From Escherichia phage EEc2: a DNA stretch of 44,883 nt. Position 1 is the stretch's first letter; every line of letters starts with the position of its first letter. Below the pieces are notes generated by a model. The model saw only the letters and a program-made list of their open reading frames with translations. It ran no database searches and was not told the DNA's origin. A program made the translations under genes and the position numbers. Positions 6,039 to 31,659 of the stretch are shown one piece after another. The stretch is taken from the sequence record ON210144.1. One strand, given 5' to 3'.

Positions 6039-6054
6039 GTCTCACATGTGAGAC
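6039..6054 (+). repeat. Conserved palindrome GTCTCACATGTGAGAC, copy a
   Basis: Perfect 16-bp inverted repeat ending 2 nt upstream of promoter P1. Confidence 0.85.
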
Positions 6055-6056
6055 TT

Positions 6057-6077
6057 ATTTACCGGACACTATAGGAT
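6057..6077 (+). promoter_or_regulatory. Phage promoter P1 (ATTTACCGGACACTATAGGAT)
   Basis: SP6-like core GACACTATAG; predicted +1 G at 6074. First phage promoter after the RNAP gene. Confidence 0.75.
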
Positions 6078-6219
6078 AGCCGTCGGAGACGGGAAAGAAA
6101 GGGAAGATAAAGGATATAAAGGAAGTAATAGGTATTAAAGGTTATATAGGTTATCTAGGAATACCTATTACCTTCTTCCTTCCTCTTATTACCACTTAGA
6201 GGAAGGGCAGATCTAGGTT
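6078..6219 (+). other. Structured purine-rich/AT-rich tract between tandem promoters P1 and P2 (candidate primary replication origin)
   Basis: Purine run GGGAAAGAAAGGGAAGATAAAGGATATAAAGGAAG, imperfect inverted repeat GGAAGTAATAGGTATT / AATACCTATTACCTTCTTCC and small palindrome CCGTCGGAGACGG. Position parallels the T7 origin at phi1.1A/phi1.1B. Confidence 0.45.
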
Positions 6220-6235
6220 GTCTCACATGTGAGAC
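6220..6235 (+). repeat. Conserved palindrome GTCTCACATGTGAGAC, copy b
   Basis: Perfect 16-bp inverted repeat ending 5 nt upstream of promoter P2. Confidence 0.85.
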
Positions 6236-6240
6236 TTCGT

Positions 6241-6261
6241 ATTTACCGGACAGTATAGATA
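6241..6261 (+). promoter_or_regulatory. Phage promoter P2 (ATTTACCGGACAGTATAGATA)
   Basis: Variant core with GTATAG; predicted +1 G at 6258; 31 nt upstream of the gene 1.1-like ORF. Confidence 0.65.
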
Positions 6262-6288
6262 AGACTAACTTACTTTGGAGATTTAACC

Positions 6289-6417
6289 ATGCGTAACTTT
6301 GAGAAGATGACCCGTAAAGCTAACCGTTTTGACATGGAAGAAGGGCAGACGAAAGGCAAGAAGCTGAATAAACCTGTCCGTGACCGTGCATCTAAACGCG
6401 CAGCATGGGAGTTCTGA
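6289..6417 (+). CDS. Small basic protein resembling T7 gene 1.1 product (42 aa)
   Basis: Translates MRNFEKMTRKANRFDMEEGQTKGKKLNKPVRDRASKRAAWEF, matching my recollection of T7 gp1.1, and sits directly after the tandem promoters as in T7. GGAG 8 nt upstream. Confidence 0.55.
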   Translation: MRNFEKMTRKANRFDMEEGQTKGKKLNKPVRDRASKRAAWEF

Positions 6418-6420
6418 GTT

Positions 6421-6639
6421 ATGGCTAAATACAGAATCAAGACCTGTTTAAATAGTCACGGGCAAGAGTTCTACGTAGTGCAACGTAAAGTATTAGGCTT
6501 AATATGGGTCACTTGTATGATGCCTATTGGCTATACTGATACAGAGGCTATCTTCTGCACCGAAAGGGATGCAAAGAAGTTTATCTCTAAGCGTAGAAAA
6601 GCTGACTCTTACCAACCTAGAATTATTAAGGTGAACTAA
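6421..6639 (+). CDS. Hypothetical protein (72 aa)
   Basis: ATG with GGAG upstream; stop overlaps the primase-helicase start by 1 nt. Confidence 0.55.
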   Translation: MAKYRIKTCLNSHGQEFYVVQRKVLGLIWVTCMMPIGYTDTEAIFCTERDAKKFISKRRKADSYQPRIIKVN

Positions 6640-8627
6640 TGGCTATTATTAATAACATCCCGTGCCCTGCCTGCCAGAAGAATGGGCACGATAAATCAGG
6701 CAATCATCTCATGATATTTGATGATGGTGCTGGCTATTGTAACCGTGGTCACTTTCATGATAATGGTAGACCCTACTATCATAAGCCAGAGGGAGGCATC
6801 GAGATAACCGAGTTGCCTATTACTGGCAATATCAAATATACACCTTCTCAATTCAAAGAAATGGAGAAGGAAGGGAAGATAAGCGACCCTAAATTACGTG
6901 CCATCGCACTAGGTGGTATGCGTATGAAAGACCGTTGGGAGGTCATGAATGAGCAAGAAAGGGCAGACCAAGGAGCAGAGTGGAAACTTGATGTTGAATG
7001 GTTCCTCACGCTTAAGCGTAAGAACCTTGTTTCCCGACACATTCGCGGCGACATTTGCGCATTGTATGATGTACGTGTCGGACACGATGAAGAGGGTAGA
7101 GTCTCGCGGCATTACTATCCACGCTTCGAGAAAGGTGAGCTAGTAGGAGCTAAGTGTCGTACCTTACCTAAAGATTTCAAGTTTGGACACTTAGGTAAAC
7201 TCTTTGGTATGCAAGATCTTTTCGGTATGAATACTTTGTCTCACGTGTTAGACAAGGGGAGACGAAAGGATTGCTTGCTTATTGTAGGCGGTGAACTTGA
7301 TGCACTAGCAGCGCAGCAGATGCTCCTTGATTCTGCCAAAGGTACTAAGTGGGAAGGTCAGCCATACCATGTATGGTCTGTCAATAAAGGTGAGTCTTGC
7401 CTTGAAGAGATAGTGCAAAACCGTGAGCACATAGCCCAATTCAAGAAGATTATATGGGGCTTTGATGGCGACGAGGTGGGGCAGAAGCAGAACCAACAAG
7501 CTGCTCGCCTGTTTCCTGGCAAATCCTACATCCTCGAATATCCATCTGGTTGCAAAGATGCTAACAAGGCATTGATGGCTGGCAAGGCTAAAGAGTTTGT
7601 AGATGCATGGTTTAATGCCAAGTCATCTGATGAAGTCTTTGGTAGCCAGATTAAATCTATCGCATCTCAAAGGGATAAGCTCAAGGCTGCACGTCCAGAG
7701 CAAGGACTATCATGGCCTTGGCCTAAGCTGAACAAGGTAACGCTAGGTATTCGTAAGAACCAACTTATCATTGTAGGCGCAGGCTCTGGTGTAGGTAAGA
7801 CTGAGTTCCTTCGTGAAGTAGTTAAGCACCTCATTGAAGAACACGGTGAATCTGTAGGCATCATTTCTACAGAAGACCCGATGGTCAAGGTGTCCCGTGC
7901 TTTTATCGGCAAGTGGATTGATAAGCGTATTGAGTTACCGCCAACCAACGACCCGAAAGAAGATGGATACCGTGAGGTGTTCGACTACACCGAGGAAGAG
8001 GCTAACGCCGCCATTGATTATGTAGCTGATACAGGTAAGCTGTTTGTAGCTGACCTAGAGGGTGACTATTCGATGGAAAAGGTAGAGCAAACTTGCCTAG
8101 AGTTTGAGGCTATGGGCATTTCTAATATCATCATTGATAACTTAACGGGGATTAAATTAGATGAGCGTGCTTTTGGTGGGAAGGTTGGTGCACTTGATGA
8201 ATGCGTCAAGCGGATTGGTACTATCAAAGACCGACACCCGGTTACTATATTCCTTGTATCACACCTTACACGTCCTCCGGCAAACCGTACCCAACACGAA
8301 GAAGGTGGCGAGGTTATCCTTTCTGACTTCCGAGGTTCAGGCGCTATCGGATTCTGGGCATCTTACGCCTTGGGGATTGAGCGTAATACAAGAGCTGAAA
8401 CGCTTGATGAACGGACTACCACGTACATCTCATGTGTCAAAGACCGCGACCAAGGTATCTACACTGGAACCAAGGTCATGCTTAAGGGTGACATTCAAAC
8501 CGGACGTTTAATGGAACCACAAGCCCGTACTAAGTCATTTGATACAGGTGAAGCAAGGCAACAAGAAGTGCCGGATTTACCGGACACTATAGAAGAGACA
8601 ACTTTTGACGATGAACAGGAGTTTTAA
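6639..8627 (+). CDS. DNA primase/helicase (T7 gp4-like), 662 aa
   Basis: N-terminal Cys4 zinc ribbon CPACQ...CNRGH, Walker A GAGSGVGKTEF, acidic C-terminus ending DDEQEF. Confidence 0.95.
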   Translation: MAIINNIPCPACQKNGHDKSGNHLMIFDDGAGYCNRGHFHDNGRPYYHKPEGGIEITELPITGNIKYTPSQFKEMEKEGKISDPKLRAIALGGMRMKDRWEVMNEQERADQGAEWKLDVEWFLTLKRKNLVSRHIRGDICALYDVRVGHDEEGRVSRHYYPRFEKGELVGAKCRTLPKDFKFGHLGKLFGMQDLFGMNTLSHVLDKGRRKDCLLIVGGELDALAAQQMLLDSAKGTKWEGQPYHVWSVNKGESCLEEIVQNREHIAQFKKIIWGFDGDEVGQKQNQQAARLFPGKSYILEYPSGCKDANKALMAGKAKEFVDAWFNAKSSDEVFGSQIKSIASQRDKLKAARPEQGLSWPWPKLNKVTLGIRKNQLIIVGAGSGVGKTEFLREVVKHLIEEHGESVGIISTEDPMVKVSRAFIGKWIDKRIELPPTNDPKEDGYREVFDYTEEEANAAIDYVADTGKLFVADLEGDYSMEKVEQTCLEFEAMGISNIIIDNLTGIKLDERAFGGKVGALDECVKRIGTIKDRHPVTIFLVSHLTRPPANRTQHEEGGEVILSDFRGSGAIGFWASYALGIERNTRAETLDERTTTYISCVKDRDQGIYTGTKVMLKGDIQTGRLMEPQARTKSFDTGEARQQEVPDLPDTIEETTFDDEQEF

Positions 8628-8788
8628 TGGAAATTATTAAACCAGTATTGAATATCGGTATTGAGATCCTATTCATGCTTGTGATCGCAGATTATGCTGC
8701 ACGATATGGCTTCAAGAAAGCAGTGAAACTTATCGTTGCATCTGGTTTTATGATGTCAATGTTCTTTATTGTAACACGCCTTATCTAG
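8627..8788 (+). CDS. Hypothetical small membrane protein (53 aa, two hydrophobic segments)
   Basis: ATG overlaps the primase stop (TAATG); translates MEIIKPVLNIGIEILFMLVIADYAARYGFKKAVKLIVASGFMMSMFFIVTRLI. Confidence 0.35.
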   Translation: MEIIKPVLNIGIEILFMLVIADYAARYGFKKAVKLIVASGFMMSMFFIVTRLI

Positions 8789-8805
8789 TGTATTTATCAG
8801 GGCTT

Positions 8806-8821
8806 GTCTTACATGTGAGAC
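8806..8821 (+). repeat. Conserved palindrome variant GTCTTACATGTGAGAC, copy c
   Basis: 15/16 match to the perfect palindrome, 18 nt after a stop codon, followed by T-rich sequence; no promoter downstream. Confidence 0.75.
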
Positions 8822-8860
8822 AGGCTCTTATTAAGTACATTAAATAACTGGAGATTGATT

Positions 8861-9544
8861 ATGTATAAATTAGTATTGAATGTAGGTGATTATGTTCGTA
8901 ACATCAATGAAGCCTCACGTCGTTATCGTTGCCGTGGTGTAGTGGCTCGTGTAAGTGAGAACATGTATCATGTAGAATATGATGATGGTATTAAGGCTTC
9001 TTATCACAAGAAAACCGCACATAAATACCTTGAAAAGGTTGTAGAGGTAAACAATCAATGTAAGTGCATACATGATGAGGTTTGCGATAAATGTGCTCGC
9101 CAGATGCTTAAGAATTTCCTAGCCCCTCTTTATTATGGTGCTGGTCCTCAAACACTAGCAGAGTACATGGCAGAAAAGAAAACCACACTCAAGAAAGAGC
9201 GTCGCAATGTAATCACTGGTAAGACTCAAAGTGAGATGATTAAGCAATGTGGCACTGCATTAGGTGTTACACAGTTCAATACTCGTGCATTGGGTAAATC
9301 CACAGGGCAAGCTATGGTGAAAATTGGTGAAGCTATGATGCACCCAAATGTGCCTGTGCGAATCTTGGATGTTGACCATGCAATCACAGAGCATGGCACA
9401 CCACGGCGTGTAGCTAATAATCATTTCGCCGACACTATAGAAGGTATTATTCGTAAGCAAGGGTTGAAGGGTCTTCACATCTTAAATGGTGAAGAATTAC
9501 TGTACCTACCTATCGTTACTGAAGAAACATACGTGAATATCTAA
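8861..9544 (+). CDS. Hypothetical protein (227 aa)
   Basis: ATG 8861 with GGAG 7 nt upstream (track start 8855 is TTG). Several Cys pairs (CKCIHDEVCDKC); no confident family. Confidence 0.6.
   Translation: MYKLVLNVGDYVRNINEASRRYRCRGVVARVSENMYHVEYDDGIKASYHKKTAHKYLEKVVEVNNQCKCIHDEVCDKCARQMLKNFLAPLYYGAGPQTLAEYMAEKKTTLKKERRNVITGKTQSEMIKQCGTALGVTQFNTRALGKSTGQAMVKIGEAMMHPNVPVRILDVDHAITEHGTPRRVANNHFADTIEGIIRKQGLKGLHILNGEELLYLPIVTEETYVNI
9433..9453 (+). promoter_or_regulatory. Internal phage-promoter-like sequence P3 (ATTTCGCCGACACTATAGAAG) inside the 8861..9544 CDS
   Basis: Positions -11 to +4 identical to consensus (GACACTATAGAAG); upstream half diverges. Predicted +1 G at 9450. Confidence 0.4.
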
Positions 9545-9554
9545 GGAGTTAATC

Positions 9555-9773
9555 ATGACTAAGGTATTAATTTATATGCGTGGACCTCATAAATGCTATG
9601 CAGTTGTAGCACCAAATGGCGTTAAGCCTTATCGTACTTCAAAAAGATTGGCATTAATAGGTGCTAGTAGTAGTGCAAGTTTCCAAATGGAACTTTTTGG
9701 TCATTGGACTGAAAGGCAATTCCGTGAGGATTTTAAAGTCATTGGCAGTTTCATGGTGAAATATGCAGAATAA
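9555..9773 (+). CDS. Hypothetical protein (72 aa)
   Basis: ATG with TAAGGAG upstream. Confidence 0.5.
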   Translation: MTKVLIYMRGPHKCYAVVAPNGVKPYRTSKRLALIGASSSASFQMELFGHWTERQFREDFKVIGSFMVKYAE

Positions 9774-9786
9774 ACATAGTCTTAGA

Positions 9787-9939
9787 ATGTTCGATGGTCA
9801 TGAAGACCTGCAAGCCAAGATTACTAACCAAGCCTTCCTGTTCGCACAGTTAACTATGGCTGAGGCCAAGAAGAATAGTCTCACTCGTGAACAGGTTATC
9901 AAGGAAAGTGAAGTGAAACGTAAGATTCGCAGTCGATAA
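9787..9939 (+). CDS. Possible small protein (50 aa)
   Basis: Fills the gap between 9773 and palindrome d, but the SD is poor. Confidence 0.2.
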   Translation: MFDGHEDLQAKITNQAFLFAQLTMAEAKKNSLTREQVIKESEVKRKIRSR

Positions 9940-9949
9940 GTCAAGGGTT

Positions 9950-9965
9950 GTCTCACGTGTGAGAC
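9950..9965 (+). repeat. Conserved palindrome GTCTCACGTGTGAGAC, copy d
   Basis: Perfect 16-bp inverted repeat (extendable to GGTTGTCTCACGTGTGAGACAGCC) followed by TTTTAT. Confidence 0.85.
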
Positions 9966-9996
9966 AGCCTTTTATCATGTTGATTGGAGGTGCATT

Positions 9997-10104
9997 ATGC
10001 CACGTGATTATGATTCTGATTGGGACTACTATGACTCAATGAATCCAAAACCAGAACGTTCAGATGATTACTACGAAACAGAGGCAATGTATGAAAACTA
10101 TTAA
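9997..10104 (+). CDS. Possible tiny acidic Tyr/Asp-rich protein (35 aa)
   Basis: ATG with GGAGG 7 nt upstream; translates MPRDYDSDWDYYDSMNPKPERSDDYYETEAMYENY. Confidence 0.3.
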   Translation: MPRDYDSDWDYYDSMNPKPERSDDYYETEAMYENY

Positions 10105-10309
10105 AGTCAGTAAGGTTTGCTCTTGCGGTAAAGGTTATCGCAGTCGTATTGATGGTAAGTGTGGACATTGTAGGTCTAAGAAAGAGGCTGCTTTGTTTGA
10201 CAAGTACCACAATGAATTAGCCTATAACTACCCACATCTAACACCTAATTCTTTATTAGGGCTTGGTTATAGGGCTAAATACTTTGGAGCAATCTATGAA
10301 ATCAATTGA
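10091..10309 (+). CDS. Small zinc-ribbon protein (72 aa)
   Basis: ATG 10091 with GAGG upstream (track start 10064 lacks RBS); CxC...CxxC motif CSCGKGYRSRIDGKCGHC; 14-nt overlap with the DNAP start. Confidence 0.5.
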   Translation: MKTIKVSKVCSCGKGYRSRIDGKCGHCRSKKEAALFDKYHNELAYNYPHLTPNSLLGLGYRAKYFGAIYEIN

Positions 10310-12842
10310 TTGGAAGAAGGAGGCAGAAGGTCGTATCCTCGTGATGGATGCGGAAGCTAAAGGACTCCTTGACGCTATCCGATATGGACACCGTGAAGAT
10401 GTGCATATCATTTGCTGCATGGATTTGCTTACTACCGAGGAGTTTCTCTTCTTTGACCCGTATGAGATGCGTGACCCTGAAGCAAGAGAACGCCTGAAGG
10501 AATGGGAAGGTCATCAAGATGGAACCTTGGTTGACGGTGTTAACTTCCTGAAGCACTGTGAGGCTATTGTGTCGCAGAACTTCCTAGGGTATGACGGTCT
10601 TCTCTTTGAGAAAGCATTCCCTGATATTTGGAAAGGCTTTAACTATACCGAGAAGCGCGGTAAGGGCAGACTCCGTGCTGACCTGTGTCCGGTGCGAGTC
10701 ATGGATACGCTGGTGATGAGTCGCCTGTTAAACCCCGATAGACGCCTTCCTCCGCAAGCATATGCCAAAGGTATGGGTAACGTCGCCCCTCACTCAATTG
10801 AGGCGCACGGCATCCGTATAGGTCGCTATAAACCGGAGAACGAGGACTGGTCTAAACTAACTGACCACATGGTTCACCGTGTACGTGAGGACGTGGCGAT
10901 TGGTCGTGACTTGTTCCTCTGGCTCTTTAACGGGGAATGGATGGAGCACAAACGCCGTGGCGTGAATAAACGCACGGGCCTAGGCATTGAGACAGCCTTC
11001 CACATGGAGTCCATTGTGGCGCTGGAGATGAGCCGTCAGGCCGAGCGCGGGTTCCGTCTGGACATCGACAAGGCTTTGGCCCGATGCGAAGAATTGGACG
11101 CTAAGATTGATGAGACAGTCGCAGCGTTCCGCCCTCACATGCCTATGCGTATCAAGTCTAAACCTTTTAAACCGGAAGAAAAGAATGAAGTATGCCAACG
11201 CGCAAATGAGTATGGAGCTGGCAACAATATACCTACTGTCCTTGACCCCTCACACTTTCTTCATGCCGAGAGACGAGGAGATCGCAAGACAGTATGGAGT
11301 GTCACTACTAAGTCTGGTGATTGGTCGGCTAGTGTCAAGAAAGACTTTCCTCACCTTAGAGGAAACCGTAATGACACGCCAAGTATCAAGTGGATTGGTG
11401 CTTACTCGCCTGTTACTTTCGAAGAGATTCCCTTGGGTAACAGGGATACAGTTAAGCAAGTGCTCTATGATTATGGATGGAAAGGTGTTGAATTTAACGA
11501 TACCGAGCAAGCGCATCTCGATGAGTATGGCGTATTACCAAAACCTTGGAGTGGAAAGATAAATGAAAAGTCTCTTACTTTATGGCAAGAGAGAGCCGCA
11601 CGTGAAGGTAAAACAGTACCCGATTGGTGCTTGGGTATCGCTGCATGGTACATACTCGTATCCCGTCGTGGTCAGATACTCAACCGTGGTGACGTTGAAG
11701 CCTTCAACGAGAAGGGAACGTGGCCCTCGCAGGCTGGTGTACGAAAGTGTCGCGGCCTTGTACCTGTAGCATTCAACAAGGAGCTAGGGATCAATGCGCA
11801 GCAATACTACGAAAGGTACGGATGCTGGCCTACGTCAGACAAGGATGACGGGGAGTGGCGTGTTCCAGCTGTTGCTATTAGCATTGGCACTTCTACGTTC
11901 CGTATGCGTCATCGTAACGTGGTTAATATTCCTGCCCGTGGCTTGTATCCTTTACGTGATTTATTCATAGCAGGTAAAGGCAAGCTAATCCTTGGTTGTG
12001 ACGGTGCAGGTCTTGAACTGCGCGTCCTGTCTCACTTCATGAATGACCCTGAGTACCAAGAGATTGTATTGCATGGTGATATCCATACACATAACCAGAT
12101 GAAGGCTGGTCTTCCTAAGCGTGACATGGCGAAGACGTTTATATACGCTTTCCTCTATGGCTCTGGTATAGCTAACCTTGCAGCAGTCTGCGGTGTTACT
12201 GAGGAAGAAATGAAGGAAGTTGTGGCAAGATTCGAGATTGAACTACCGTCTCTTGCACGTCTTCGTGAGAATGTTATCGCACAAGGTAACAAGTTTGGCT
12301 ACCTGCAAGCACCTGATGGGCATTGGGGTCGCATCCGCATGTCTGGTGGTGAACTTAAAGAGCACACGATGCTTAACGTATTACTCCAGATGACTGGCTC
12401 TTTGTGTATGAAATATGCATTAGTCAAGGCATTTGCAGTAATGCGCAAGGAAGGTGTAGCTTTGGATGCTATGGGAAATCCTTGTGGTGTGGCTAACGTG
12501 CATGATGAAATCCAGATGGAAGTTCCTGAAGAGGAGGTCTTGTATCTTAACTACGACCTACCTTTCACCTTAGATGGGTTCGAAACAGAGAAGGCTGCTG
12601 TGAAAGCAGTTTTCGATGCAGAGGAGAAACGTGTTCATGTGGATTCTGAAGGACGTATGTGGTCTGCTGCAAACCTCGTTAGCGTTGATGCTGATGCTGG
12701 TGTGTTGCATTGCCAGCGCCGTTATCACCGTGCAGGTCATATCATTGCCGACGCCATGACTTGGGCAGGGCAGTATCTGAAGATGCGTTGCCCGATGGCA
12801 GGAGAATATAAGATTGGCGCAAGCTGGAAGGAAACACACTGA
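10296..12842 (+). CDS. Family-A DNA polymerase (T7 gp5-like), 848 aa
   Basis: Pol I motif B RDMAKTFIYAFLYGSG and motif C HDEIQMEV; ATG 10296 with GGAG upstream (track start 10263 is non-ATG). Confidence 0.95.
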   Translation: MKSIDWKKEAEGRILVMDAEAKGLLDAIRYGHREDVHIICCMDLLTTEEFLFFDPYEMRDPEARERLKEWEGHQDGTLVDGVNFLKHCEAIVSQNFLGYDGLLFEKAFPDIWKGFNYTEKRGKGRLRADLCPVRVMDTLVMSRLLNPDRRLPPQAYAKGMGNVAPHSIEAHGIRIGRYKPENEDWSKLTDHMVHRVREDVAIGRDLFLWLFNGEWMEHKRRGVNKRTGLGIETAFHMESIVALEMSRQAERGFRLDIDKALARCEELDAKIDETVAAFRPHMPMRIKSKPFKPEEKNEVCQRANEYGAGNNIPTVLDPSHFLHAERRGDRKTVWSVTTKSGDWSASVKKDFPHLRGNRNDTPSIKWIGAYSPVTFEEIPLGNRDTVKQVLYDYGWKGVEFNDTEQAHLDEYGVLPKPWSGKINEKSLTLWQERAAREGKTVPDWCLGIAAWYILVSRRGQILNRGDVEAFNEKGTWPSQAGVRKCRGLVPVAFNKELGINAQQYYERYGCWPTSDKDDGEWRVPAVAISIGTSTFRMRHRNVVNIPARGLYPLRDLFIAGKGKLILGCDGAGLELRVLSHFMNDPEYQEIVLHGDIHTHNQMKAGLPKRDMAKTFIYAFLYGSGIANLAAVCGVTEEEMKEVVARFEIELPSLARLRENVIAQGNKFGYLQAPDGHWGRIRMSGGELKEHTMLNVLLQMTGSLCMKYALVKAFAVMRKEGVALDAMGNPCGVANVHDEIQMEVPEEEVLYLNYDLPFTLDGFETEKAAVKAVFDAEEKRVHVDSEGRMWSAANLVSVDADAGVLHCQRRYHRAGHIIADAMTWAGQYLKMRCPMAGEYKIGASWKETH

Positions 12843-12958
12843 TGGATAGGCTTGACATTATTTGCCTATTCTTCACTCTCTTTCTTACACTCCTTATGCT
12901 TGCTTGTTATGGGAGTATGAGACTAGATATACCTGATGAAGAAGAGGGTTACGACTAA
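12842..12958 (+). CDS. Small single-pass membrane protein (38 aa), paralog 1
   Basis: ATG overlaps the DNAP stop; translates MDRLDIICLFFTLFLTLLMLACYGSMRLDIPDEEEGYD. Confidence 0.4.
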   Translation: MDRLDIICLFFTLFLTLLMLACYGSMRLDIPDEEEGYD

Positions 12959-13056
12959 TGCAAACTGCTTTTATTATTCTTGGCATCATATTATTTATGG
13001 TAGTACTCTGGGCCTTCTCTGGCATTGACCCGGATTGTGATGGTAACTACGACTGA
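12958..13056 (+). CDS. Small single-pass membrane protein (32 aa), paralog 2
   Basis: ATG overlaps the previous stop; translates MQTAFIILGIILFMVVLWAFSGIDPDCDGNYD, sharing the hydrophobic core and (D)xPDxxxGxYD tail with paralog 1. Confidence 0.4.
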   Translation: MQTAFIILGIILFMVVLWAFSGIDPDCDGNYD

Positions 13057-13124
13057 GTTATACTCAAGGTCACTTACGAGTGGCCTTTATGGATAACTTA
13101 TCCCTACTTATTTTGTCTAACATG

Positions 13125-13145
13125 ATTTACTGGACACTATAGAAG
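13125..13145 (+). promoter_or_regulatory. Phage promoter P4 (ATTTACTGGACACTATAGAAG)
   Basis: Exact consensus; predicted +1 G at 13142. Confidence 0.85.
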
Positions 13146-13211
13146 GAAAGCCTAGACAATCTAGGTTTATAAGGTAGTATAGGTAATTAAGTAAATATAG
13201 GAGATATAAAC

Positions 13212-13589
13212 ATGTCTATGGTAACTACTCTGGTATTTGTAGCTCAATACTTTCGTGGTCTGGCTAATAAGTTCAAGTCCAAGGCTATCAAAGCTATTGA
13301 GTCTCGCATCGAGGCAGTACAGGCAGAGCAAGTTAAAGTTGAAGAACATCGTAGTTCTCAAATGATTGACTGCCATAACCGCTACTATGCATCTCGTGAT
13401 GACCTTAATGCACGCCAAGTCAAAGAGGTTGAAGAGATGCTGGCACGTCACCAGCAAGAGCGCGACAGTCTGAAAGCTGAATTTGAAGAGAACAAGGCAT
13501 CCATCGCCCTTGTACATCAAGCCGCATCTGACAGCCTGAAGAAAGAGATTGTTATGCTGGAAATTGAGTTAGATAACCTGACCAAATAA
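13212..13589 (+). CDS. Hypothetical membrane-anchored coiled-coil protein (125 aa)
   Basis: TAGGAG SD; N-terminal hydrophobic segment VTTLVFVAQYF, remainder charged and heptad-like. Confidence 0.6.
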   Translation: MSMVTTLVFVAQYFRGLANKFKSKAIKAIESRIEAVQAEQVKVEEHRSSQMIDCHNRYYASRDDLNARQVKEVEEMLARHQQERDSLKAEFEENKASIALVHQAASDSLKKEIVMLEIELDNLTK

Positions 13590-13608
13590 TTACTGGACAC
13601 TATAGAAC
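13588..13608 (+). promoter_or_regulatory. Phage promoter P5 (AATTACTGGACACTATAGAAC)
   Basis: 19/21 consensus match; +1 G at 13605; followed at 13611-13635 by an 8-bp-stem hairpin with CTTAGT in its loop. Confidence 0.75.
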
Positions 13609-13751
13609 AATAGGTCGGCTTAGTTCGGCCTATGATTGTAAAGTGTTGAACCTTATTGTGCATCTTGCACAACCCGATGCTATATCGGGCTTTCTAGTGA
13701 GTACATGCTTGTGCTCAGTACAAAGCTAACTGACAATAGGAGACTAAATAA

Positions 13752-14558
13752 ATGGCACGTGGTGATTTTGATTTTGGTGCTCAGGTTACTAAGGCTGAAG
13801 GTAAAGTATTTAAGAACCCTGAAGTTGGTGATCATGAAGCAGTAATCTCTGGCATCATTCATGTTGGTTCCTTCCAAGATATTTTTAAGAAAGGTAATAC
13901 CACTGAGGTTAAGAAGCCAGCAAACTTTGTTCTTGTTAAGATTATCCTGATGGGTGACGACGACAAGAATGAAGATGATTCTCGCATGGAACAGTGGATG
14001 GCTGTGCCTCTGAAGTCTGGTGACAAGGCAACCTTGACTAAGTTCCTGAATGCAGTTGACCCTAAAGAGCTGCTTGGTGGTTTCGATGACTTCATCGGTG
14101 AATGCCTGACTGCAACTATGGTTGGCTCTGGCGACAAGAATGATGATGGTACTTTCAAGTATGTTAACTGGAAAGGCTTTGGCGGTATGCCTGATAAGTT
14201 GAAGAAGCTTGTACTGGCTCAGGTAGAAGAGGAAGGTCTGTCTATGACAGGTCATATCACCTTCGACAAGCTGACCAAAGAAATCCTTGATGACATCCCA
14301 GCTAACTTGGTGCGTCAATACTTCCTTAATGAAACACCTCGTGGTAAGAACCTGTCTGTTGCTGGTTCTCACGTAGAAGCAATCATTAAAGCTGCTCGTG
14401 AAGAAGACCCAGAGTGGAAGAAAGCCAAGAAGAAAGATGACGAGGATGCTACTCCAGCTAATCGTAAATCTCTGGATACTGGTGAGTCTGTTCCACAGGA
14501 AGTACCTGAAGCAGAAGATACTCCTGCACCGGAGATGGATGAGGACGCGGAATATTAA
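13752..14558 (+). CDS. Putative single-stranded DNA-binding protein (T7 gp2.5-like), 268 aa
   Basis: AGGAG SD; beta-rich core with DKNDDGTFKYVNWK resembling the T7 gp2.5 NGDGTTTFKFK segment as I recall it; acidic tail ending EMDEDAEY. Confidence 0.5.
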   Translation: MARGDFDFGAQVTKAEGKVFKNPEVGDHEAVISGIIHVGSFQDIFKKGNTTEVKKPANFVLVKIILMGDDDKNEDDSRMEQWMAVPLKSGDKATLTKFLNAVDPKELLGGFDDFIGECLTATMVGSGDKNDDGTFKYVNWKGFGGMPDKLKKLVLAQVEEEGLSMTGHITFDKLTKEILDDIPANLVRQYFLNETPRGKNLSVAGSHVEAIIKAAREEDPEWKKAKKKDDEDATPANRKSLDTGESVPQEVPEAEDTPAPEMDEDAEY

Positions 14559-14567
14559 GGAGAAAGG

Positions 14568-14786
14568 ATGAAAGTACAAATCGTAACCCTGCACTGCAAG
14601 AAAGGTATCACAACGCTCGGAGGTAGCACTTTCCACTCTTTCTCCGAAGGGGAGATTTATGCTGACCTGCACTACGTCTGGCGCGACGGACAGCACGTGG
14701 TGAACTACAGCGACCCAGCTACGGGGAAACGCCACGGCGTATCGCTTCCGGCGCATGACATTGCTCAGGTGAACACAGTTTTATAA
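14568..14786 (+). CDS. Hypothetical protein (72 aa)
   Basis: AAGGAG SD. Confidence 0.5.
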   Translation: MKVQIVTLHCKKGITTLGGSTFHSFSEGEIYADLHYVWRDGQHVVNYSDPATGKRHGVSLPAHDIAQVNTVL

Positions 14787-14787
14787 A

Positions 14788-14803
14788 GTCTCACGTGTGA
14801 GAC
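14788..14803 (+). repeat. Conserved palindrome GTCTCACGTGTGAGAC, copy e
   Basis: Perfect 16-bp inverted repeat 2 nt after the 14568..14786 stop and 15 nt upstream of promoter P6. Confidence 0.85.
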
Positions 14804-14818
14804 AAATAGGTGTCCGGT

Positions 14819-14839
14819 ATTTACTGGACACTATAGAAG
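14819..14839 (+). promoter_or_regulatory. Phage promoter P6 (ATTTACTGGACACTATAGAAG)
   Basis: Exact consensus; +1 G at 14836. Confidence 0.85.
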
Positions 14840-14891
14840 AGAAGAATTTTAATCGGCGATAATGCCATAACCAACAAAAGGAGAATTTAAT

Positions 14892-15263
14892 ATGTTCAAG
14901 ATTGAAACTATCGTAAACCGTGTTGTTAAAGGTGCTGCTCTGGTATCCGTTGAGTCTTTCATTATCGTCGATGAAGCTGATCAACTGGTAGCTGGTACTA
15001 AGGCTTACGATACCCGTGAAGAAGCTCAGGCTAAGATTGACAGCATGGGTAACTTCGCTGCTGGTCTGGAGTTCGCTCGTGCTTGCTTCCCTGAGCAGGC
15101 TGACAAAGCTCAGATTGGTAAGGCTAATATCGTAGCTGAATATCTGGATTGGGTTGCTGCTGGTAAACCAGTGAAAGAAGTTAAGGCTGCTGAAGAAGCT
15201 GAAGCTCCAGCAGAAGAAGTAGCTGCACCGGAAACTCCGGTAAGCGAAGAGGAAGAATTTTGA
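14892..15263 (+). CDS. Hypothetical acidic protein (123 aa) with C-terminal SEEEEF tail
   Basis: Strong SD AAAGGAGAA; bracketed by promoter P6 and terminator T1; Ala/Glu/Lys-rich with an acidic C-terminus ending in Phe. Confidence 0.65.
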   Translation: MFKIETIVNRVVKGAALVSVESFIIVDEADQLVAGTKAYDTREEAQAKIDSMGNFAAGLEFARACFPEQADKAQIGKANIVAEYLDWVAAGKPVKEVKAAEEAEAPAEEVAAPETPVSEEEEF

Positions 15264-15322
15264 TAATAGCAGGTGTTGCCTCTGTTAGTCCTGGTTGACT
15301 ATCACGCTCACCTCATCTAATG

Positions 15323-15354
15323 CCCTGTCTGCCTTAGTGTAGGCAGGGTCTTTT
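15323..15354 (+). terminator. Hairpin plus U-run terminator T1
   Basis: Stem CCCTGTCTGC / GTAGGCAGGG (about 10 bp with G-U pairs), CTTAGT in the loop, then TCTTTTG; near-identical in design to T2. Confidence 0.65.
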
Positions 15355-15380
15355 GCGTAATAGTTATTGGAGAATGAATT

Positions 15381-15677
15381 ATGCCGACTATTGAATCTCG
15401 TTTACGCGCTGACTATAATAGATACTTTAGCCGCTTACATAGGGATTATATGACACACGTTACAGTATGGTTAGATGGTGAGATATTCTTAGTGTATGAG
15501 TATTTACATGATACGGATGACCGCTATGACCCTAGTTCCCTCCAAGTAGCAAAGTCTATTGTAGAGCACATCTTGAAGGAGTGGCCTACATGCGACCAAA
15601 CTTCGACTTCGGAGCTACAGTATCGGAAGACAATAACCTGTTGCTGTGGCCAACTGAAGGTAATAGAATCGCTTTAA
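15381..15677 (+). CDS. Hypothetical protein (98 aa)
   Basis: GGAG SD; C-terminal 29 codons overlap the exonuclease gene in another frame, so the true 3' end is uncertain. Confidence 0.4.
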   Translation: MPTIESRLRADYNRYFSRLHRDYMTHVTVWLDGEIFLVYEYLHDTDDRYDPSSLQVAKSIVEHILKEWPTCDQTSTSELQYRKTITCCCGQLKVIESL

Positions 15678-19566: not shown

Positions 19567-20053
19567 TCCAAATTATCGAAAACCACCTCGTACACCGCCA
19601 AGACCACTTGCCTACTGTCCTTTTACTGGAAAGCTTTTCCGTAAGTTCAAAGATGGCTGGAGAGAAACAGGACTTAGCAGAAAGAGTGATGGATATTTAC
19701 AGTGTAAAGTCGATGGTAAGACTGTAAGTGTTCATGTTTTAGCAATGAATATGATGGGTTATGACACTACCGGTTTTACAGTAGATCACATAAATCATAT
19801 ACGCTGGGATAATAGGTTTATTAATCTACGTCTATTATCTCATAAAGATAATTGTTTAAATAGAGAGGCGATACATATAAGTAAGCTGCCGAGTGGTAAC
19901 TACAGAGCGCGATGTGGAAATGTTCATCTTGGCGTATTTGAGGATAAGTTACTTGCTCGTGGTGCTATCCTATGGTATCGCCATAGGAGATTTAATAATG
20001 TTAAATTCAATGAAGGCAACGCGTGCCGTAGAAGTAGCCGAAGCTATATTTGA
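19556..20053 (+). CDS. HNH homing-type endonuclease (165 aa)
   Basis: VDHINHIRWDNRFINLRLLSHKDNCLN is a classic HNH motif; AAGGAAG SD; overlaps the ligase by 11 nt and the next gene by 56 nt. Confidence 0.8.
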   Translation: MSSNPNYRKPPRTPPRPLAYCPFTGKLFRKFKDGWRETGLSRKSDGYLQCKVDGKTVSVHVLAMNMMGYDTTGFTVDHINHIRWDNRFINLRLLSHKDNCLNREAIHISKLPSGNYRARCGNVHLGVFEDKLLARGAILWYRHRRFNNVKFNEGNACRRSSRSYI

Positions 20054-27956: not shown

Positions 27957-28678
27957 TGGCTATAGGTTCAGCCGTTATGGCTGGTATGTCTTCTATTGGT
28001 AGCATGTTTGCAGGCAGTGGTGCAGCAGCCGCTGCTGGAGGTGCTGCCGCAGGTGGCGGAGGTTTGCTAGGTTCACTAGGTGGATTCCTAAGTGGCTCTA
28101 CTGCTGGTTTCTCTAATGCTGGCCTTCTTGGTGCTGGCCTTCAAGGGTTAGGCTTGATTGGTGATCTATTTGGTGGAAGTGATGAAGCCAAGGCGATGAA
28201 GAAAGCACAAGAAGAGCAATGGCGGCAGCAGCTTATTGCTACACAAGAGGCGTACAAGACAGTGGCAGACGCAGAACGTTCTGCTGCTAAACAATATCAT
28301 GCAGATGCAATCAGTAATCAGGCTTCACTGCTACAGCAGCGAGCACAGGTTGCATTACTTGCTGGGGCTACTGGTACTGGTGGTAATTCTGTGTCCTCTA
28401 TGCTTAATGACTTAGCAGCAGATGGCGGCAGGAACCAGAGTACTATCATTGATAACTATGAGAATCAGAAGATTAATTTCACCAACCAGCTTAAGTCTAT
28501 CCAACGTGGTGGTCAGATGCAGATGCGTGAGTTTAAGAAGCCTTCTGCTATGAATACCTTGGTTAAAGGTATTCCAAGTCTGGCATCTGCCTATGTAACT
28601 GGTAGTAAGTCTGGCAAGGCATTGGGTAAAGCCTTAACTGATTCTCGCACATATTCATCTGGAACAAGAGGTATTTAA
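27956..28678 (+). CDS. Internal virion protein, Gly/Ala-rich N-terminus (240 aa)
   Basis: ATG 27956 with AAAGGAGGG upstream; Gly/Ala-rich N-terminal 70 residues; positional analog of T7 gp13/14. Confidence 0.6.
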   Translation: MAIGSAVMAGMSSIGSMFAGSGAAAAAGGAAAGGGGLLGSLGGFLSGSTAGFSNAGLLGAGLQGLGLIGDLFGGSDEAKAMKKAQEEQWRQQLIATQEAYKTVADAERSAAKQYHADAISNQASLLQQRAQVALLAGATGTGGNSVSSMLNDLAADGGRNQSTIIDNYENQKINFTNQLKSIQRGGQMQMREFKKPSAMNTLVKGIPSLASAYVTGSKSGKALGKALTDSRTYSSGTRGI

Positions 28679-31626
28679 TGGCAATTGAGCGACAAGCAGT
28701 ACAAGGTCTGCCACAAGTGCAGGCCACTTCTCCTAATGTCATGACCTTTGCACCTCAACAAGTGGGAGGTGTAGAGGCTGGCGTGGCTTCTACCTCCGGT
28801 AGTAGGTTTATCGAAGACCTTATTCGTGCAGCAAGCAGCGTGGCTGATGTTACCACTGGTATCCTTAATCAGAAGATTGAGGAAGATAAGGTTGTTCAAA
28901 TGGAACGGGCATATAACGGATTAATGCCTTCTGAGGATGCAACTCGTGGTGGCGCTCGTGCTAACATGCTTGTCAAAGCTCAACTGCTAGCTAATGATGA
29001 AGCAGCACGAATGAAAGACATGGCTACTCGTTTCCAAGGAACGGATGACGAATGGACACAACTTATGGTTGACTCTCGTAATGAGATGCAGAATAAGCTG
29101 TTCCAGCAATACCCTGAGTTGCAAGGTGACAAAGATACTATGCGTATGGTCACTAATGTCTTCCAAGAACAGCAGCCTCAGATTTGGGCTACACGAACCC
29201 AGCATAAACTTGACCGTGAACAAGCAGACCGTGAGGATACCTTTGACGGGCGAGTGGCTTCTACTTGGGATTCTAATATTGACCCTGAAGCCTCTGGCTA
29301 TGCTTTACAGGAACGAATCCGCGAAGGTCTTACTCAAGGATTACTACCTGAACAGATGCACAAGAAGTTAGTCCAGCGAGCAATTTCACTTGCACAAGGC
29401 GGTGATGTTAGCATGGCTGAAGCCCTGAAGTATGTGAAGGACGATAAGGGTGTTTCTGTTTATGCTAAGAATCCACAGCTTATCACAGCCATCACTAGTG
29501 GTAATGCAGTTTGGGCTAGGAATAATGTAGCTGATGTAACTCGTATGTCTTTCGAAGTTAAAGAATCCTACCTTGCAGGTGATTTAACTGATGAAGAACT
29601 GTTGGAACGAGCACAGCACATTAATAATCTGACAGGTAACTCTGTCTTCTCTAATCCAGAGCTAGAGGCACTGATGCGCCAACGGGCTAAGCAGAATGCA
29701 GAGCTAGGTGCAATGCAGGATATGCGACGTGAGCTTTACTCTGACCGCCTGACTGGCTTCCAAGGTAAGACTGATAAAGAGAAGAAGGCTTACATTGATG
29801 TTATCAAACAGGATAGCCAACTTTATGCAGACCAGCAAATCAAACAACGTGGCTTGGACCCTTACAGTCAAGAGGCTGAAGCTATTCGTGGTGCAGTGGA
29901 AGTGCAGCGCCTGCAATTCATGAACTCCAAAGGCTTAGTGGATGATACCTTTGAGTCTCGTATCAAAGCCATGGAATCTATGCTATCGCCTGAGCACTTT
30001 GCCAAGGGCGAACCACAGGAGTTGATGACTATTCGCCAGTTGTGGGAACAGTTGCCAGAAGAGAGCCGAGGTGTCTTTGGTGACACGGTGAATGGCTACA
30101 TGGATAACTACAACACTGCACTACAAATGGGAGAGACACCTTTGCAGGCTGCAAGGTTTGCGCGTGAAGCACAGCAGAAATTCTCTCGTACTGAGAAGGA
30201 AACCAAGAAGTTCAACTCAGCTATTGGAGATGCACTGGATGAGGTATCTGGTGCTGGCTGGTTTGATGGTAAAACCGAAGTGTCAGACTTAGGTAAAGCT
30301 ATTGCGGAAGAAGAGTTACGAGCTAAGGCCAATATGTTGTGGTCTAGTGGTATGCGTAACATGGATTCCATCAAGAAGGCTTTAATTACTTGGGGCAATA
30401 AACGCTACACTCAATCAGAGGATGCAAAGACTTCCGGTGGCTATTTCATTAAAGGTGATTACACTTCTGCATCTGATATGCTTATGTCAGTTGGGAAAGG
30501 CGTAAACCCTACCGATGTACCTCTGGCGCTTGGTAGGTATGTAGAAACACAGATGCCAGAATTGAAGAAGGAGCTTCAAGAGTGGGAAACTAAAGATGAT
30601 ATATACATTGATTACAATGAACAGAAAGGTACTTTCGTGATTCGTGCTGGTGCAGCAGGTCGCCCTCTTTCTGGAGTAATCCCTGTAACCTCTTTAGATA
30701 CCACTTCACTACTAGATTCTGCCTATCAGAAGAAAGTAGAGGAACGAGATAAAGGCGAGTATGTTCACCCTTATCGTACAGATATTGGTGCACAAGAGCC
30801 TATGCCAGCTAAACCAACTGCCAAAGATATTGGTAAATTTGGACTAGCTAACTTCCTCATGTCTTCTGCTTTTGCTTCTGGTGAGAATCTGCCTTCTAAC
30901 TTCGAGATTAACTATCGAGGTAATATGCAACAATTCTATGACAAGCTAGCTATGGATGAGAATAAAGATAAAGTTGGCTTTAATAAGGCAACTGGAACCT
31001 TTACTCCATATAAAGATGCTCACGGTGAGTCTATCGGTTACGGTCATTTCTTAACGGAAGAAGAGAAGCGAAACGGGTATATTAAGATTGGTGATGAACT
31101 AGTTCCCTATCGAGGGTCTATGTCTCAGCTTACAGAGAGCAAGGCTCGCGCTCTTATGGAGCAAGATGCCAAGAAGCATGTGCCTCCTACTCGTGACTGG
31201 AAGATTCCGTTTGACCAGATGCATCCTGCACAGCAACGTGGCTTGATGGATTTAACCTACAATTTAGGTAAAGGTGGAATCCAGAACTCACCGCGTGCTC
31301 TTGCTGCATTCAAAGCGGGTAAGCTTACGGAAGGCTTTATCGAAATGCTGGGCACTGCATCAAGTGAAGGTAAGCGTATCCCTGGTTTACTGAAGCGACG
31401 CGCTGAGGCATACAATATGGCATCTGCTGGTGGTGTGCCTAAGATTACCGAAGTGGAGACTCGTGAAGATGGCTCCATGTGGGTTAGGTTTGGTGGACCT
31501 ATGCCAGCAGGTTCTGTCTCGGCATGGACTCATAAACGTATTGGCGCGGATGGTTGGTATCAGGTTTATGAGGCTGCACCTACCAAGTTAGCTAAAGGTT
31601 CTAAGGTAGGTAAATTTAAGTTGTAG
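28678..31626 (+). CDS. Internal virion (ejection) protein with C-terminal lysozyme-like muramidase domain, 982 aa
   Basis: Near the C-terminus YKDAHGESIGYGHFLT parallels T4 lysozyme KIYKDTEGYYTIGIGHLLT, with further matching segments downstream. Confidence 0.75.
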   Translation: MAIERQAVQGLPQVQATSPNVMTFAPQQVGGVEAGVASTSGSRFIEDLIRAASSVADVTTGILNQKIEEDKVVQMERAYNGLMPSEDATRGGARANMLVKAQLLANDEAARMKDMATRFQGTDDEWTQLMVDSRNEMQNKLFQQYPELQGDKDTMRMVTNVFQEQQPQIWATRTQHKLDREQADREDTFDGRVASTWDSNIDPEASGYALQERIREGLTQGLLPEQMHKKLVQRAISLAQGGDVSMAEALKYVKDDKGVSVYAKNPQLITAITSGNAVWARNNVADVTRMSFEVKESYLAGDLTDEELLERAQHINNLTGNSVFSNPELEALMRQRAKQNAELGAMQDMRRELYSDRLTGFQGKTDKEKKAYIDVIKQDSQLYADQQIKQRGLDPYSQEAEAIRGAVEVQRLQFMNSKGLVDDTFESRIKAMESMLSPEHFAKGEPQELMTIRQLWEQLPEESRGVFGDTVNGYMDNYNTALQMGETPLQAARFAREAQQKFSRTEKETKKFNSAIGDALDEVSGAGWFDGKTEVSDLGKAIAEEELRAKANMLWSSGMRNMDSIKKALITWGNKRYTQSEDAKTSGGYFIKGDYTSASDMLMSVGKGVNPTDVPLALGRYVETQMPELKKELQEWETKDDIYIDYNEQKGTFVIRAGAAGRPLSGVIPVTSLDTTSLLDSAYQKKVEERDKGEYVHPYRTDIGAQEPMPAKPTAKDIGKFGLANFLMSSAFASGENLPSNFEINYRGNMQQFYDKLAMDENKDKVGFNKATGTFTPYKDAHGESIGYGHFLTEEEKRNGYIKIGDELVPYRGSMSQLTESKARALMEQDAKKHVPPTRDWKIPFDQMHPAQQRGLMDLTYNLGKGGIQNSPRALAAFKAGKLTEGFIEMLGTASSEGKRIPGLLKRRAEAYNMASAGGVPKITEVETREDGSMWVRFGGPMPAGSVSAWTHKRIGADGWYQVYEAAPTKLAKGSKVGKFKL

Positions 31627-31643
31627 TATCTAACTCAAGGCTT

Positions 31644-31659
31644 GTCTCACATGTGAGAC
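31644..31659 (+). repeat. Conserved palindrome GTCTCACATGTGAGAC, copy f
   Basis: Perfect 16-bp inverted repeat (extended CTTGTCTCACATGTGAGACAGG) 18 nt after a stop, followed by TCTTTAT. Confidence 0.85.

Follow-up and report, generated by a model that had tools for sequence, protein, structure and literature searches.

The IncP plasmid RK2 carries about a dozen OB operators—adjoining promoters, distant from promoters and inside genes—through which KorB exerts global regulation, with a specificity reported to come from residues outside the helix-turn-helix. ParB–parS, SopB–sopC and P1 ParB with box A combine 16-bp palindromes with this type of helix-turn-helix domain. Among hairpin elements, T7 RNase III sites have interrupted stems of roughly 20 bp and usually lie downstream of promoters, the DNA uptake sequences of Neisseria are read by protein as double-stranded DNA and, placed as an inverted repeat, also act as an RNA terminator hairpin, and T4-type phages contain promoter–stem-loop cassettes, an example of conserved linkers driving modular exchange. 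The window analyzed here, i.e., the whole 44,883-nt sequence of Escherichia phage EEc2 (ON210144.1), is the complete genome of a K1E/K1-5-like phage (Vectrevirus, SP6 supergroup) and contains eight copies of a 16-bp palindrome, at positions 561, 6039, 6220, 7238, 8806, 9950, 14788 and 31644. We consider that the core of this element is probably a double-stranded DNA recognition site for a dimer of gp6, an early protein of the phage, with KorB-like control of transcription as the likeliest consequence.

The comparison with KorB–OB rests on the presence of multiple copies of one short palindrome together with a protein for which a ParB-fold helix-turn-helix is predicted. Several differences are nevertheless clear: the phage site has a 7-2-7 or 7-3-7 architecture whereas OB spans 13 bp; gp6 comes from a virulent phage of the T7 supergroup that has an RNA polymerase of its own; it lacks the ParB/Srx CTPase N-domain and instead has a long helix and a J-domain-like C-terminus; and it shows no family membership at the sequence level in Pfam and PDB profile searches. 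The GTCTCAC half-site resembles the chromosomal parS half-site, TGTTTCAC, with identity at 7 of 8 positions. Unlike partition sites, however, the phage half-sites are separated by a 2-3-bp spacer and the copies are dispersed at gene boundaries rather than forming a centromere-like cluster—and we saw neither a ParA partner nor a CTPase domain in this lytic phage, which has no obvious need for partition. The elements considered are as follows, with the strand indicated where one applies.

561..576: left-end copy GTCTAACACGTTAGAC, a GTCYAAC-type allele with two mismatches, 34 nt upstream of the -35 element of the first early sigma70-like promoter
611-639: early sigma70-like promoter downstream of copy 561
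2390..3274, + strand: gp6, early gene for the proposed cognate binder, immediately 5' of the RNA polymerase gene
5973..6006, + strand (hairpin 5973-5996): classical intrinsic terminator with a 10-bp stem and a T-run, located 3' of the RNA polymerase gene and ahead of copy 6039, outside the palindrome family
6039..6054: core copy GTCTCACATGTGAGAC, stem not extended, 2 nt before position -17 of the phage promoter with +1 at 6074
6220..6235: core copy ahead of the second tandem promoter (+1 at 6258), 5 nt from its position -17; that promoter precedes gp8, a homologue of T7 gene 1.1
7238..7253: copy GTCTCACGTGTTAGAC, one mismatch, within the primase/helicase ORF (6639-8627), where it encodes L-S-H-V-L-D; a perfect motif would create an in-frame TGA
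8799..8828, + strand: long hairpin, core 8806-8821 (GTCTTACATGTGAGAC) with a 7-bp extension on each side and the tail TATTAAG, 17 nt past the gp9.5 stop
9943..9972, + strand: long hairpin, core 9950-9965 with a 7-bp extension, then TATCATG, 10 nt past the gp11 stop
13115..13124: remnant left half-site GTCTAACATG, read from the sequence, abutting a phage promoter whose +1 is at 13142
14788..14803: core copy, 1 nt past the gp17 stop; position -17 of the gp18 promoter (+1 at 14836) follows 15 nt downstream
31637..31666, + strand: long hairpin, core 31644-31659 with a 7-bp extension, then TATGATA, between the internal virion protein genes gp35 and gp36

A sequence-only reading of this DNA had described a six-copy family of a perfect palindrome, one copy with a mismatch, that could not be due to chance. 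The family is real: GTCTCACRYGTGAGAC occurs exactly five times (6039, 6220, 9950, 14788 and 31644) against 0.00 expected from 100 dinucleotide-preserving shuffles, and the copy at 8806 differs by one mismatch. All six are genuine, but the count overlooked 7238 (also one mismatch) and 561 (two mismatches). Symmetry to the middle holds only for the AT-centered copies, the GT-centered ones being asymmetric at the two central bases. The extended flanks that all copies had been said to share are limited to 8806, 9950 and 31644, where TT stands on the 5' side and AGG/AGC with a T-rich run on the 3' side, and the proposed location shortly past a stop codon applies to 8806 and 31644 (17 nt each), 9950 (10 nt) and 14788 (1 nt) but not to 6039, which lies 73 nt past the RNA polymerase stop with the terminator in between, or to 6220, in a non-coding stretch. 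The placement of three copies directly upstream of a phage promoter (6039, 6220 and 14788; 2, 5 and 15 nt from position -17) was borne out.

Conservation in related phages, which that reading had proposed as a check, is extensive. Orthologous copies were found at the same places in K1E, K1-5, SP6 and the related IMG/VR viral contigs retrieved, as well as in five further whole genomes of Vibrio, Pseudomonas, Aeromonas, Marinomonas and Klebsiella phages, with 3-11 copies per relative and a left-end copy in nearly every one; T7 has neither gp6 nor any repeated palindrome family. The allele is specific to the lineage and nearly uniform within each genome—GTCTCAC, GTCYAAC, GTCTACA, GTCTAGT, GTCTCYT or GTTCGAG—and the half-sites are separated by 2 or 3 nt depending on the genome, with a concerted change from 2 to 3 nt in the Proteus phage locus L020, the phi-A318-like loci, VEN and Achelous. 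In K1-5, a foreign-type copy is located at a module junction.

Several features of these alignments point to recognition of the core as double-stranded DNA. The center of the core is unconstrained among relatives, the half-sites degenerate independently on either arm, and the left-end copies are positioned upstream of the first early promoters. Outside the long hairpins, the Y positions of GTCYAAC genomes combine as C.G (40), T.G (16), C.A (14) and T.A (1), with none of 19 pairings being C.A within the long hairpins (Fisher p = 0.035 versus outside); since C.A would break an RNA stem, this independent variation favors a DNA site over a helix. Within the primase gene, 52 of 54 flanking codons vary at the third position, as against only 2 of 5 motif codons, the two variable positions being those that define the allele. 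The RNA polymerase gene offers a comparable picture, in that some genomes keep the peptide without the motif, the peptide turns into S-H-V-L-D where a GTCTCAC genome retains the site, and phi-A318-like phages have the copy recoded in another frame (V-S-R-C-E-T) with a perfect 17-mer held. Judging from these codon patterns, the in-gene copies are under selection at the nucleotide level, even to the point of reshaping the protein. The suggestion that the copies could be operators for a dimeric protein, offered earlier as a second option, is thus the better supported one for the 16-bp core, which has the appearance of an operator-type site rather than an RNA element; our search of the literature found no binding or transcript data on the palindrome.

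The identity of the putative binder is suggested by a screen of ~3,560 alignment columns in eight conserved proteins across 70 typed loci, restricted to proteins whose genes lie no more than about 10 kb from the anchor genes. A single column sets every GTCTCAC genome apart from all others—residue 66 of gp6, which is Lys with GTCTCAC, Asn or His with GTCYAAC, and Arg with the other alleles—and no tracking column was found in RNA polymerase, primase/helicase, DNA polymerase, gp16, gp18, exonuclease or endonuclease VII. Three further genomes (VEN, Achelous and RCIP0089) obeyed the rule when tested blind, and in Marinomonas phage CPP1m a divergent gp6 helix accompanies a new site. Vectrevirus (K) is nested in the N/H clade in our trees, implying that the K/N switch occurred at least twice; independent co-switches are few, about two for K/N plus the R lineages. 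Site and protein have most likely changed together across SP6/K1E-like phages.

Described as 'of unidentified function' in the single paper that refers to it, gp6 is conserved in >200 phage genomes. Its predicted layout comprises an N-terminal KorB/ParB-like helix-turn-helix domain (residues 10-122, pLDDT 85-98 in the AlphaFold2 model), a disordered linker, a long helix (193-232) and a C-terminus with a predicted J-domain-like fold, in which the HPD tripeptide, located in the helix II–III loop of J-domain co-chaperones, is absent. In the model, residue 66 falls within helix 61-74, the second helix of the helix-turn-helix. The N-domain resembles the DNA-binding domains of KorB, ParB and SopB, with Foldseek matches that are not significant. 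Pfam DUF3102 was matched by 12 of 56 gp6 homologues and KfrA_N by one; a Pfam search with the gp6 of the window gave no match, ParBc included, a profile search of PDB sequences found nothing, and the model opens with the helical DNA-binding domain, the position of the CTPase domain in ParB being vacant.

On this basis, a dimer of gp6 would bind the core (t)GTCTCAC-NN-GTGAGAC(a), with the helix-turn-helix reading each 7-bp half-site and Lys66 contacting the allele-defining G:C pair. Produced early from host-polymerase transcripts, the protein would then occupy about eight chromosome sites—before early promoters, directly before three phage promoters, inside primase/helicase and at three intergenic boundaries—with KorB-like global control, or a roadblock to transcription, at module boundaries as the likeliest outcome. 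Because KorB is reported to draw its specificity from outside the helix-turn-helix, reading by the recognition helix is not guaranteed. A hairpin would accommodate the concerted spacer change more readily than a rigid dimer, and recognition as DNA demands a flexible or co-evolved geometry of the DNA-binding domains. Binding by gp6 also leaves unexplained the placing of three sites at hairpin apexes, which counts against it.

A broader and more tentative proposal is that SP6/K1E-like and Colwellvirinae podophages possess a previously unrecognized global control circuit, in which a KorB-fold binder marks ~10 palindromes, among them the RNA polymerase and primase gene copies and the RNA hairpin apexes. 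Here, gp6 might act as a gate on transcription, or on replication start, for the host and phage polymerases alike, and its J-like domain might recruit host Hsp70; its specificity would be reprogrammable through one residue of the recognition helix (Lys for G:C, Asn/His for A:T). The SP6-group phages are workhorses—as the source of SP6 RNA polymerase and as K1-specific therapeutic phages—and their early and middle regulation is poorly understood. If correct, the assignment would give gp6 a role in binding DNA sequence-specifically at about eight sites that co-evolve with it, account for the nucleotide constraint within the RNA polymerase and primase genes, and provide a natural one-residue specificity switch (K, N/H, R) from which orthogonal operator/repressor pairs could be derived.

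An RNA layer is superimposed on this arrangement at 8806, 9950 and 31644, the only copies where the core forms the apex of a 14-pair plus-strand helix. The hairpins, previously put at 9-11 bp, in fact have 13-bp stems with 4-nt loops at these three copies (-17.5 to -17.9 kcal/mol, z about -5) and 6-bp stems at the other five (core hairpin -4.9 to -7.2 kcal/mol, z about -2), extension past the core being bimodal (0-2 bp or about 7 bp). Across relatives, 97.5% of cells in the 14 pairs are paired, 6 pairs show double changes, plus-strand G.U pairs are conserved, and the covariation score of 0.413 compares with 0.18 in shuffles and is reached in 0 of 500. The RNA-hairpin interpretation is supported only for these three copies. 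Built out by exactly 7 bp per arm into stable hairpins with weak U-rich tails (UAUUAAG, UAUCAUG), they may additionally work as attenuators or as 3'-end/processing hairpins. Their inter-cistronic positions are comparable to those of T7 RNase III sites and the T-phi terminator, but the stems (6 bp in five copies, 13-14 bp and uninterrupted in three) differ from the approximately two helical turns with an internal loop of the T7 type, and three copies precede promoters; the 6-bp cores are unlikely to be RNase III sites. The dual use of DNA and RNA recalls the Neisseria uptake sequences—an analogy only, as those serve DNA uptake and the phage elements gene control.

Could all copies act solely as plus-strand RNA hairpins (terminators or attenuators, 3'-end stabilizers, or RNase III/RNase E signals), their stems alike through common descent or gene conversion? 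All copies do lie on the transcribed strand, a loop easily tolerates a spacer of either 2 or 3 nt, a 2024 paper gives seven as the number of SP6 RNA polymerase terminators with reference to the 2004 genome papers, and three copies form the covarying hairpins. A terminator pattern scan also flags 6039 and 6220 alone, albeit on weak criteria, and at 6039 such a role would be superfluous given the classical terminator directly before it. We regard this explanation as unlikely, considering that five of eight copies are limited to 6-bp stems at -5 to -7 kcal/mol, that C.A is as frequent as U.G outside the long hairpins, that a free loop on a fixed stem is the reverse of typical RNA-protein hairpins, and that Rfam gave no match for the element. 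Copies standing before the first promoters, copies retained in mid-gene within the essential RNA polymerase and primase genes at a cost to the proteins' sequence, and all-site allele switches that follow one gp6 residue fit it equally poorly.

The DNA-site signatures in themselves do not identify which protein binds, and the half-site is similar to ParB-family and other enterobacterial palindromic sites. The reader might instead be the phage RNA polymerase, acting at a signal for pausing or termination, or some other phage or host protein. Such a binder seems rather improbable, as only K66 of gp6, and no column in the seven other screened proteins, tracks the allele; for a host factor in particular, phages of the same or closely related hosts differ in allele, while one and the same allele is found in E. 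coli, Erwinia, Vibrio and Pseudomonas phages. Even less credence is given to single-stranded DNA hairpins or cruciforms, whether as signals for replication or recombination or as linkers conserved for modular exchange. Stem-specific recognition with a free loop would suit them, and two of the copies lie on either side of the region that corresponds in position to the T7 phi1.1A/B origin. However, the C.A combinations weaken a DNA hairpin as well, a 16-bp palindrome with a 2-nt center extrudes poorly, and no HUH/Y1 or transposase-like gene or domain was found in the early and middle ORFs scanned, which, with only eight copies, sets the family apart from high-copy REP/BIME elements and their RAYT transposases. 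As for linkers, the K1-5 junction copy and some homology breakpoints (at 8806 and 9950) agree with such a role, but most breakpoints lie elsewhere, at 6400, 6600, 10250, 12800, 13550-13700 and 15550.

The window is a complete podophage genome of 44,883 bp resembling K1E and K1-5 (Vectrevirus, Molineuxvirinae, SP6 supergroup), with all genes on the plus strand and a gene order collinear with those of K1E, K1-5 and SP6; Escherichia phage EEc4 is 98.9% identical to it over 5500–15500. The palindrome GTCTCACRYGTGAGAC occurs exactly at five places (6039, 6220, 9950, 14788 and 31644) against none expected in 100 shuffles, which bears out the sequence-only reading that such repetition is not chance. 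Allowing up to two mismatches confirmed the near-exact copy at 8806 and added those at 7238 and 561—hence the six copies originally listed all stand, and a total of six overlooked two. Three copies do lie directly upstream of phage promoters, as had been proposed, and the main neighbours are the following:

561: copy 34 nt upstream of the first early sigma70-like promoter
5973–5996: classical terminator, with copy 6039 just downstream
+1 at 6074, 6258 and 14836: phage promoters with copies 2, 5 and 15 nt upstream of position −17, respectively
7238: copy within the primase/helicase ORF (6639–8627, plus strand)

The element was followed through 29 viral contigs anchored on the primase/helicase gene, 39 anchored on the gene for the early product gp6 (partly the same contigs) and five further complete genomes. 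Conservation among relatives, named earlier as a check, held: the copies of K1E and K1-5 are identical in set and place to those of the window, and SP6, with no copy within two mismatches, carries GTCYAAC-RY-GTTGGAC at each orthologous place. The allele is nearly uniform within each genome and differs by genome.

Half-site alleles of the palindrome among related phages
GTCTCAC, 2-nt spacer: Vectrevirus, Erwinia Era103-like phages
GTCTCAC, 3-nt spacer: phi-A318-like phages, Vibrio phage VEN, Pseudomonas phage Achelous
GTCYAAC, 2-nt spacer: SP6-like phages, many Klebsiella and Salmonella phages
GTCCAAC, 3-nt spacer: locus L020
GTCTACA: a further allele among relatives
GTCTAGT: Pectobacterium phage PP99, Klebsiella phage RCIP0089
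GTCTCYT: Aeromonas phage Tola
GTTCGAG: Marinomonas phage CPP1m

The same locations return from genome to genome: the left end, the RNA polymerase gene or the stretch right after it, the vicinity of phage promoters, and intergenic boundaries within the DNA-metabolism region. Some GTCTCAC-type Vectrevirus genomes also hold GTCYAAC-type copies (K1-5 at 9570, locus L004 at 3222, locus L010 at 17412 and the window at 561), which are either fossils of an allele switch or recombination imports; the foreign-type copy of K1-5 coincides with an exchanged downstream gene. Additionally, a phage promoter (+1 at 13142) is immediately preceded by GTCTAACATG (window 13115–13124), a left half-site of the GTCYAAC type that looks like the remnant of a former palindrome site.

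That the allele changes in concert at every site implies that each lineage has its own reader. Our screen for this reader took in eight left-third proteins conserved across all lineages (about 3,560 alignment columns, 70 typed loci), the alternative binders being proteins encoded near the anchor genes. A specificity-position scan returned exactly one column splitting every GTCTCAC genome from all others—residue 66 of gp6 (2390–3274, plus strand), which is Lys with GTCTCAC, His or Asn with GTCYAAC, and Arg with both GTCTACA and GTCTAGT, the two Arg groups differing at residues 63–64 (AYVYR vs AWAYR). In an earlier screen on a smaller data set, two columns of gp6 and a handful from other proteins had passed; with the larger set, residue 66 alone remained. 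The residue-66 rule gave the correct site in all three whole genomes examined later (VEN, Achelous and RCIP0089), and in CPP1m a divergent gp6 helix occurs together with a new palindrome site. Pairing of Lys with G:C and of Asn with A:T fits general amino-acid/base preferences. No other DNA-binding candidate emerged when 20 early and middle ORFs were scanned with Pfam and PHROGs. Neighbour-joining trees of RNA polymerase and of gp6 both place Vectrevirus (Lys) within the Asn/His clade, and Era103-like phages and Colwellvirinae (Lys) outside it; therefore, the coupled switch of allele and residue 66 took place at least twice. Independent co-switches are few. A switch of spacer from 2 to 3 nt at all sites together needs a flexible or co-evolved dimer geometry, and comparing gp6 of L020 with that of two related loci, L021 and L022, gave no explanation of the 3-nt spacer.

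Homologues of gp6 occur in 213 GenBank phage records, with the gene upstream of and near the RNA polymerase gene in every genome examined; T7 has neither a gp6 homologue nor a repeated palindrome family. The AlphaFold2 model of gp6, resting on a 56-sequence alignment, has these parts:

Residues 10–122: N-domain, confident (pLDDT 85–98)
Residues 126–192: linker, disordered and acidic
Residues 193–232: long helix
Residues 239–293: C-domain, confident

In the modelled N-domain, a helix (46–57) and a turn precede the helix that bears residue 66 (61–74). Foldseek listed ParB-type complexes among its matches, which were not significant. Pfam gave DUF3102 in 12 of the 56 homologues, KfrA_N in one and no match for gp6 of the window, and the HPD motif is absent from the J-like loop. 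On this computational evidence, the multi-copy palindromic DNA element is shown to co-vary with one residue of a predicted KorB/ParB-like protein, gp6.

Four observations speak for the 16-bp core being read as double-stranded DNA by what would be a symmetric dimer. The central 2–3 nt are unconstrained. At pair 4 outside the long hairpins, GTCYAAC genomes have C.G 40 times, T.G 16, C.A 14 and T.A once, as predicted by independent half-site degeneracy, which means that Y varies separately on each arm; C.A here would disrupt the 6-bp RNA stem. Moreover, the first promoters come only after the left-end copies. Finally, third codon positions in the primase gene vary in 52 of 54 flanking codons against two of five motif codons, these two being exactly the allele-defining positions. 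Copy 7238 reads GTCTCACGTGTTAGAC, an Asn-to-His change relative to SP6-type genomes, because the perfect motif would introduce an in-frame TGA in Vectrevirus. A motif arising as a by-product of a conserved peptide could be rejected in the RNA polymerase gene, where the window, K1E, K1-5 and SP6 keep the peptide VR(V/T)(S/A)NVLD with no motif there, and phi-A318-like phages carry a perfect 17-mer at the same place in another frame, encoding V-S-R-C-E-T; where a GTCTCAC genome retains the site, the peptide is S-H-V-L-D. From the patterns in both genes, it is therefore the protein that yields to the nucleotide motif, not vice versa. Copies in coding sequence are thus shown computationally to be under nucleotide-level selection.

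Other readings were weighed against a dedicated operator. A general promoter element was rejected, with copies at only 3 of about 13 phage promoters and at spacings of 2 to 15 nt. For a recombination linker, some homology breakpoints against 32 loci do fall at 8806 and 9950, and most fall at other gene boundaries, so this too was rejected. A primase recognition site, suggested by the resemblance of the shared GTC ends to the T7 primase site, was set aside: the SP6 primase is reported to use GCA, and 3 nt are too slim a basis. The host-factor sites matS, SlmA and CRP misfit in half-site order or spacing, and alleles differ among phages of the same host.

An RNA layer is apparent at three sites. 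Hairpins of 9–11 bp had been expected at every copy; folding instead gives 13-bp stems with 4-nt loops at 8806, 9950 and 31644 (−17.5 to −17.9 kcal/mol, z about −5) and stems of only 6 bp at the other five (core hairpin −4.9 to −7.2 kcal/mol). Stem extension past the core is bimodal—0–2 bp in 119 distinct copies and 5–8 bp in 40, of which 30 extend by exactly 7 bp. Across 31 distinct long hairpins, 97.5% of cells in the 14-pair helix are paired, six pairs show changes on both sides, and the covariation score, 0.413, is not reached by any of 500 shuffles (0.18) or by slid registers (0.13 at most). G.U, which pairs only in plus-strand RNA, is kept at two positions, and no long hairpin has C.A at pair 4. 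These computations show three palindrome copies within predicted covarying RNA hairpins. Their tails (UAUUAAG, UAUCAUG and UAUGAUA) are only weakly U-rich, and an Rfam scan of the whole window found no relevant family; the three hairpins could act as attenuators, 3'-end protectors or processing sites. A 2024 paper cites the 2004 genome papers for seven SP6 terminators, some of which may be the long hairpins.

We regard the palindrome and gp6 together as a putative operator system of the KorB/ParB type, carried by a virulent phage of the T7 supergroup. Dimers of gp6 would bind the palindromes soon after infection and act, we infer, as a KorB-like global regulator or roadblock at promoter-proximal (−20 to −48), intragenic and boundary sites; the result could be activation or repression, a roadblock, or some part in the workings of the phi1.1A/B-like origin region. 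Through its J-like domain gp6 may also bring in host Hsp70, and the palindrome would have been built out into hairpins where RNA-level attenuation was useful. One paper describes gp6 as 'of unidentified function', and the searchable literature, a scope without the 2004 genome papers (Dobbins et al.; Scholl et al.), holds no description of the element.

Several neighbouring features were also observed. Five nt 3' of copy 14788, a 10-bp hairpin (14809–14836) pairs its upstream arm GGTGTCCGG with positions −12 to −3 of the gp18 promoter (CTGGACACT) and resembles a promoter-sequestering structure. From one relative to the next, this arm changes in step with the promoter specificity region of the phage concerned, and folding energies are −11 to −17 kcal/mol.

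Arms of gp18-promoter hairpins in relatives
SP6: GTGTCTC/GGGACAC
Proteus phage: GGTGGTCT/AGACCACT
Locus L021: CCGCCC/GGGCGG
Locus L027: GGTGCAGCAC/GTGTTGCACT

Against 7.9 expected copies, the window holds 24 of the heptamer CTTAGTG, 11 of them on the plus strand in the first 734 bp (133–734) and two near the right end (44660–44699), a pattern recalling the short end-proximal repeats of T7. An HNH homing-endonuclease ORF (19538–20053, plus strand, PF13392) in the DNA-metabolism region may be a variable insert among relatives. Finally, the tandem phage promoters at 6074–6288 (+1 at 6074 and 6258) enclose a non-coding stretch, purine-rich and then complementary pyrimidine-rich, that folds into a structure. 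Downstream lies gp8, a homologue of T7 gene 1.1 (PF08200, E 7e-16), and in position the region corresponds to the T7 phi1.1A/B primary replication origin.
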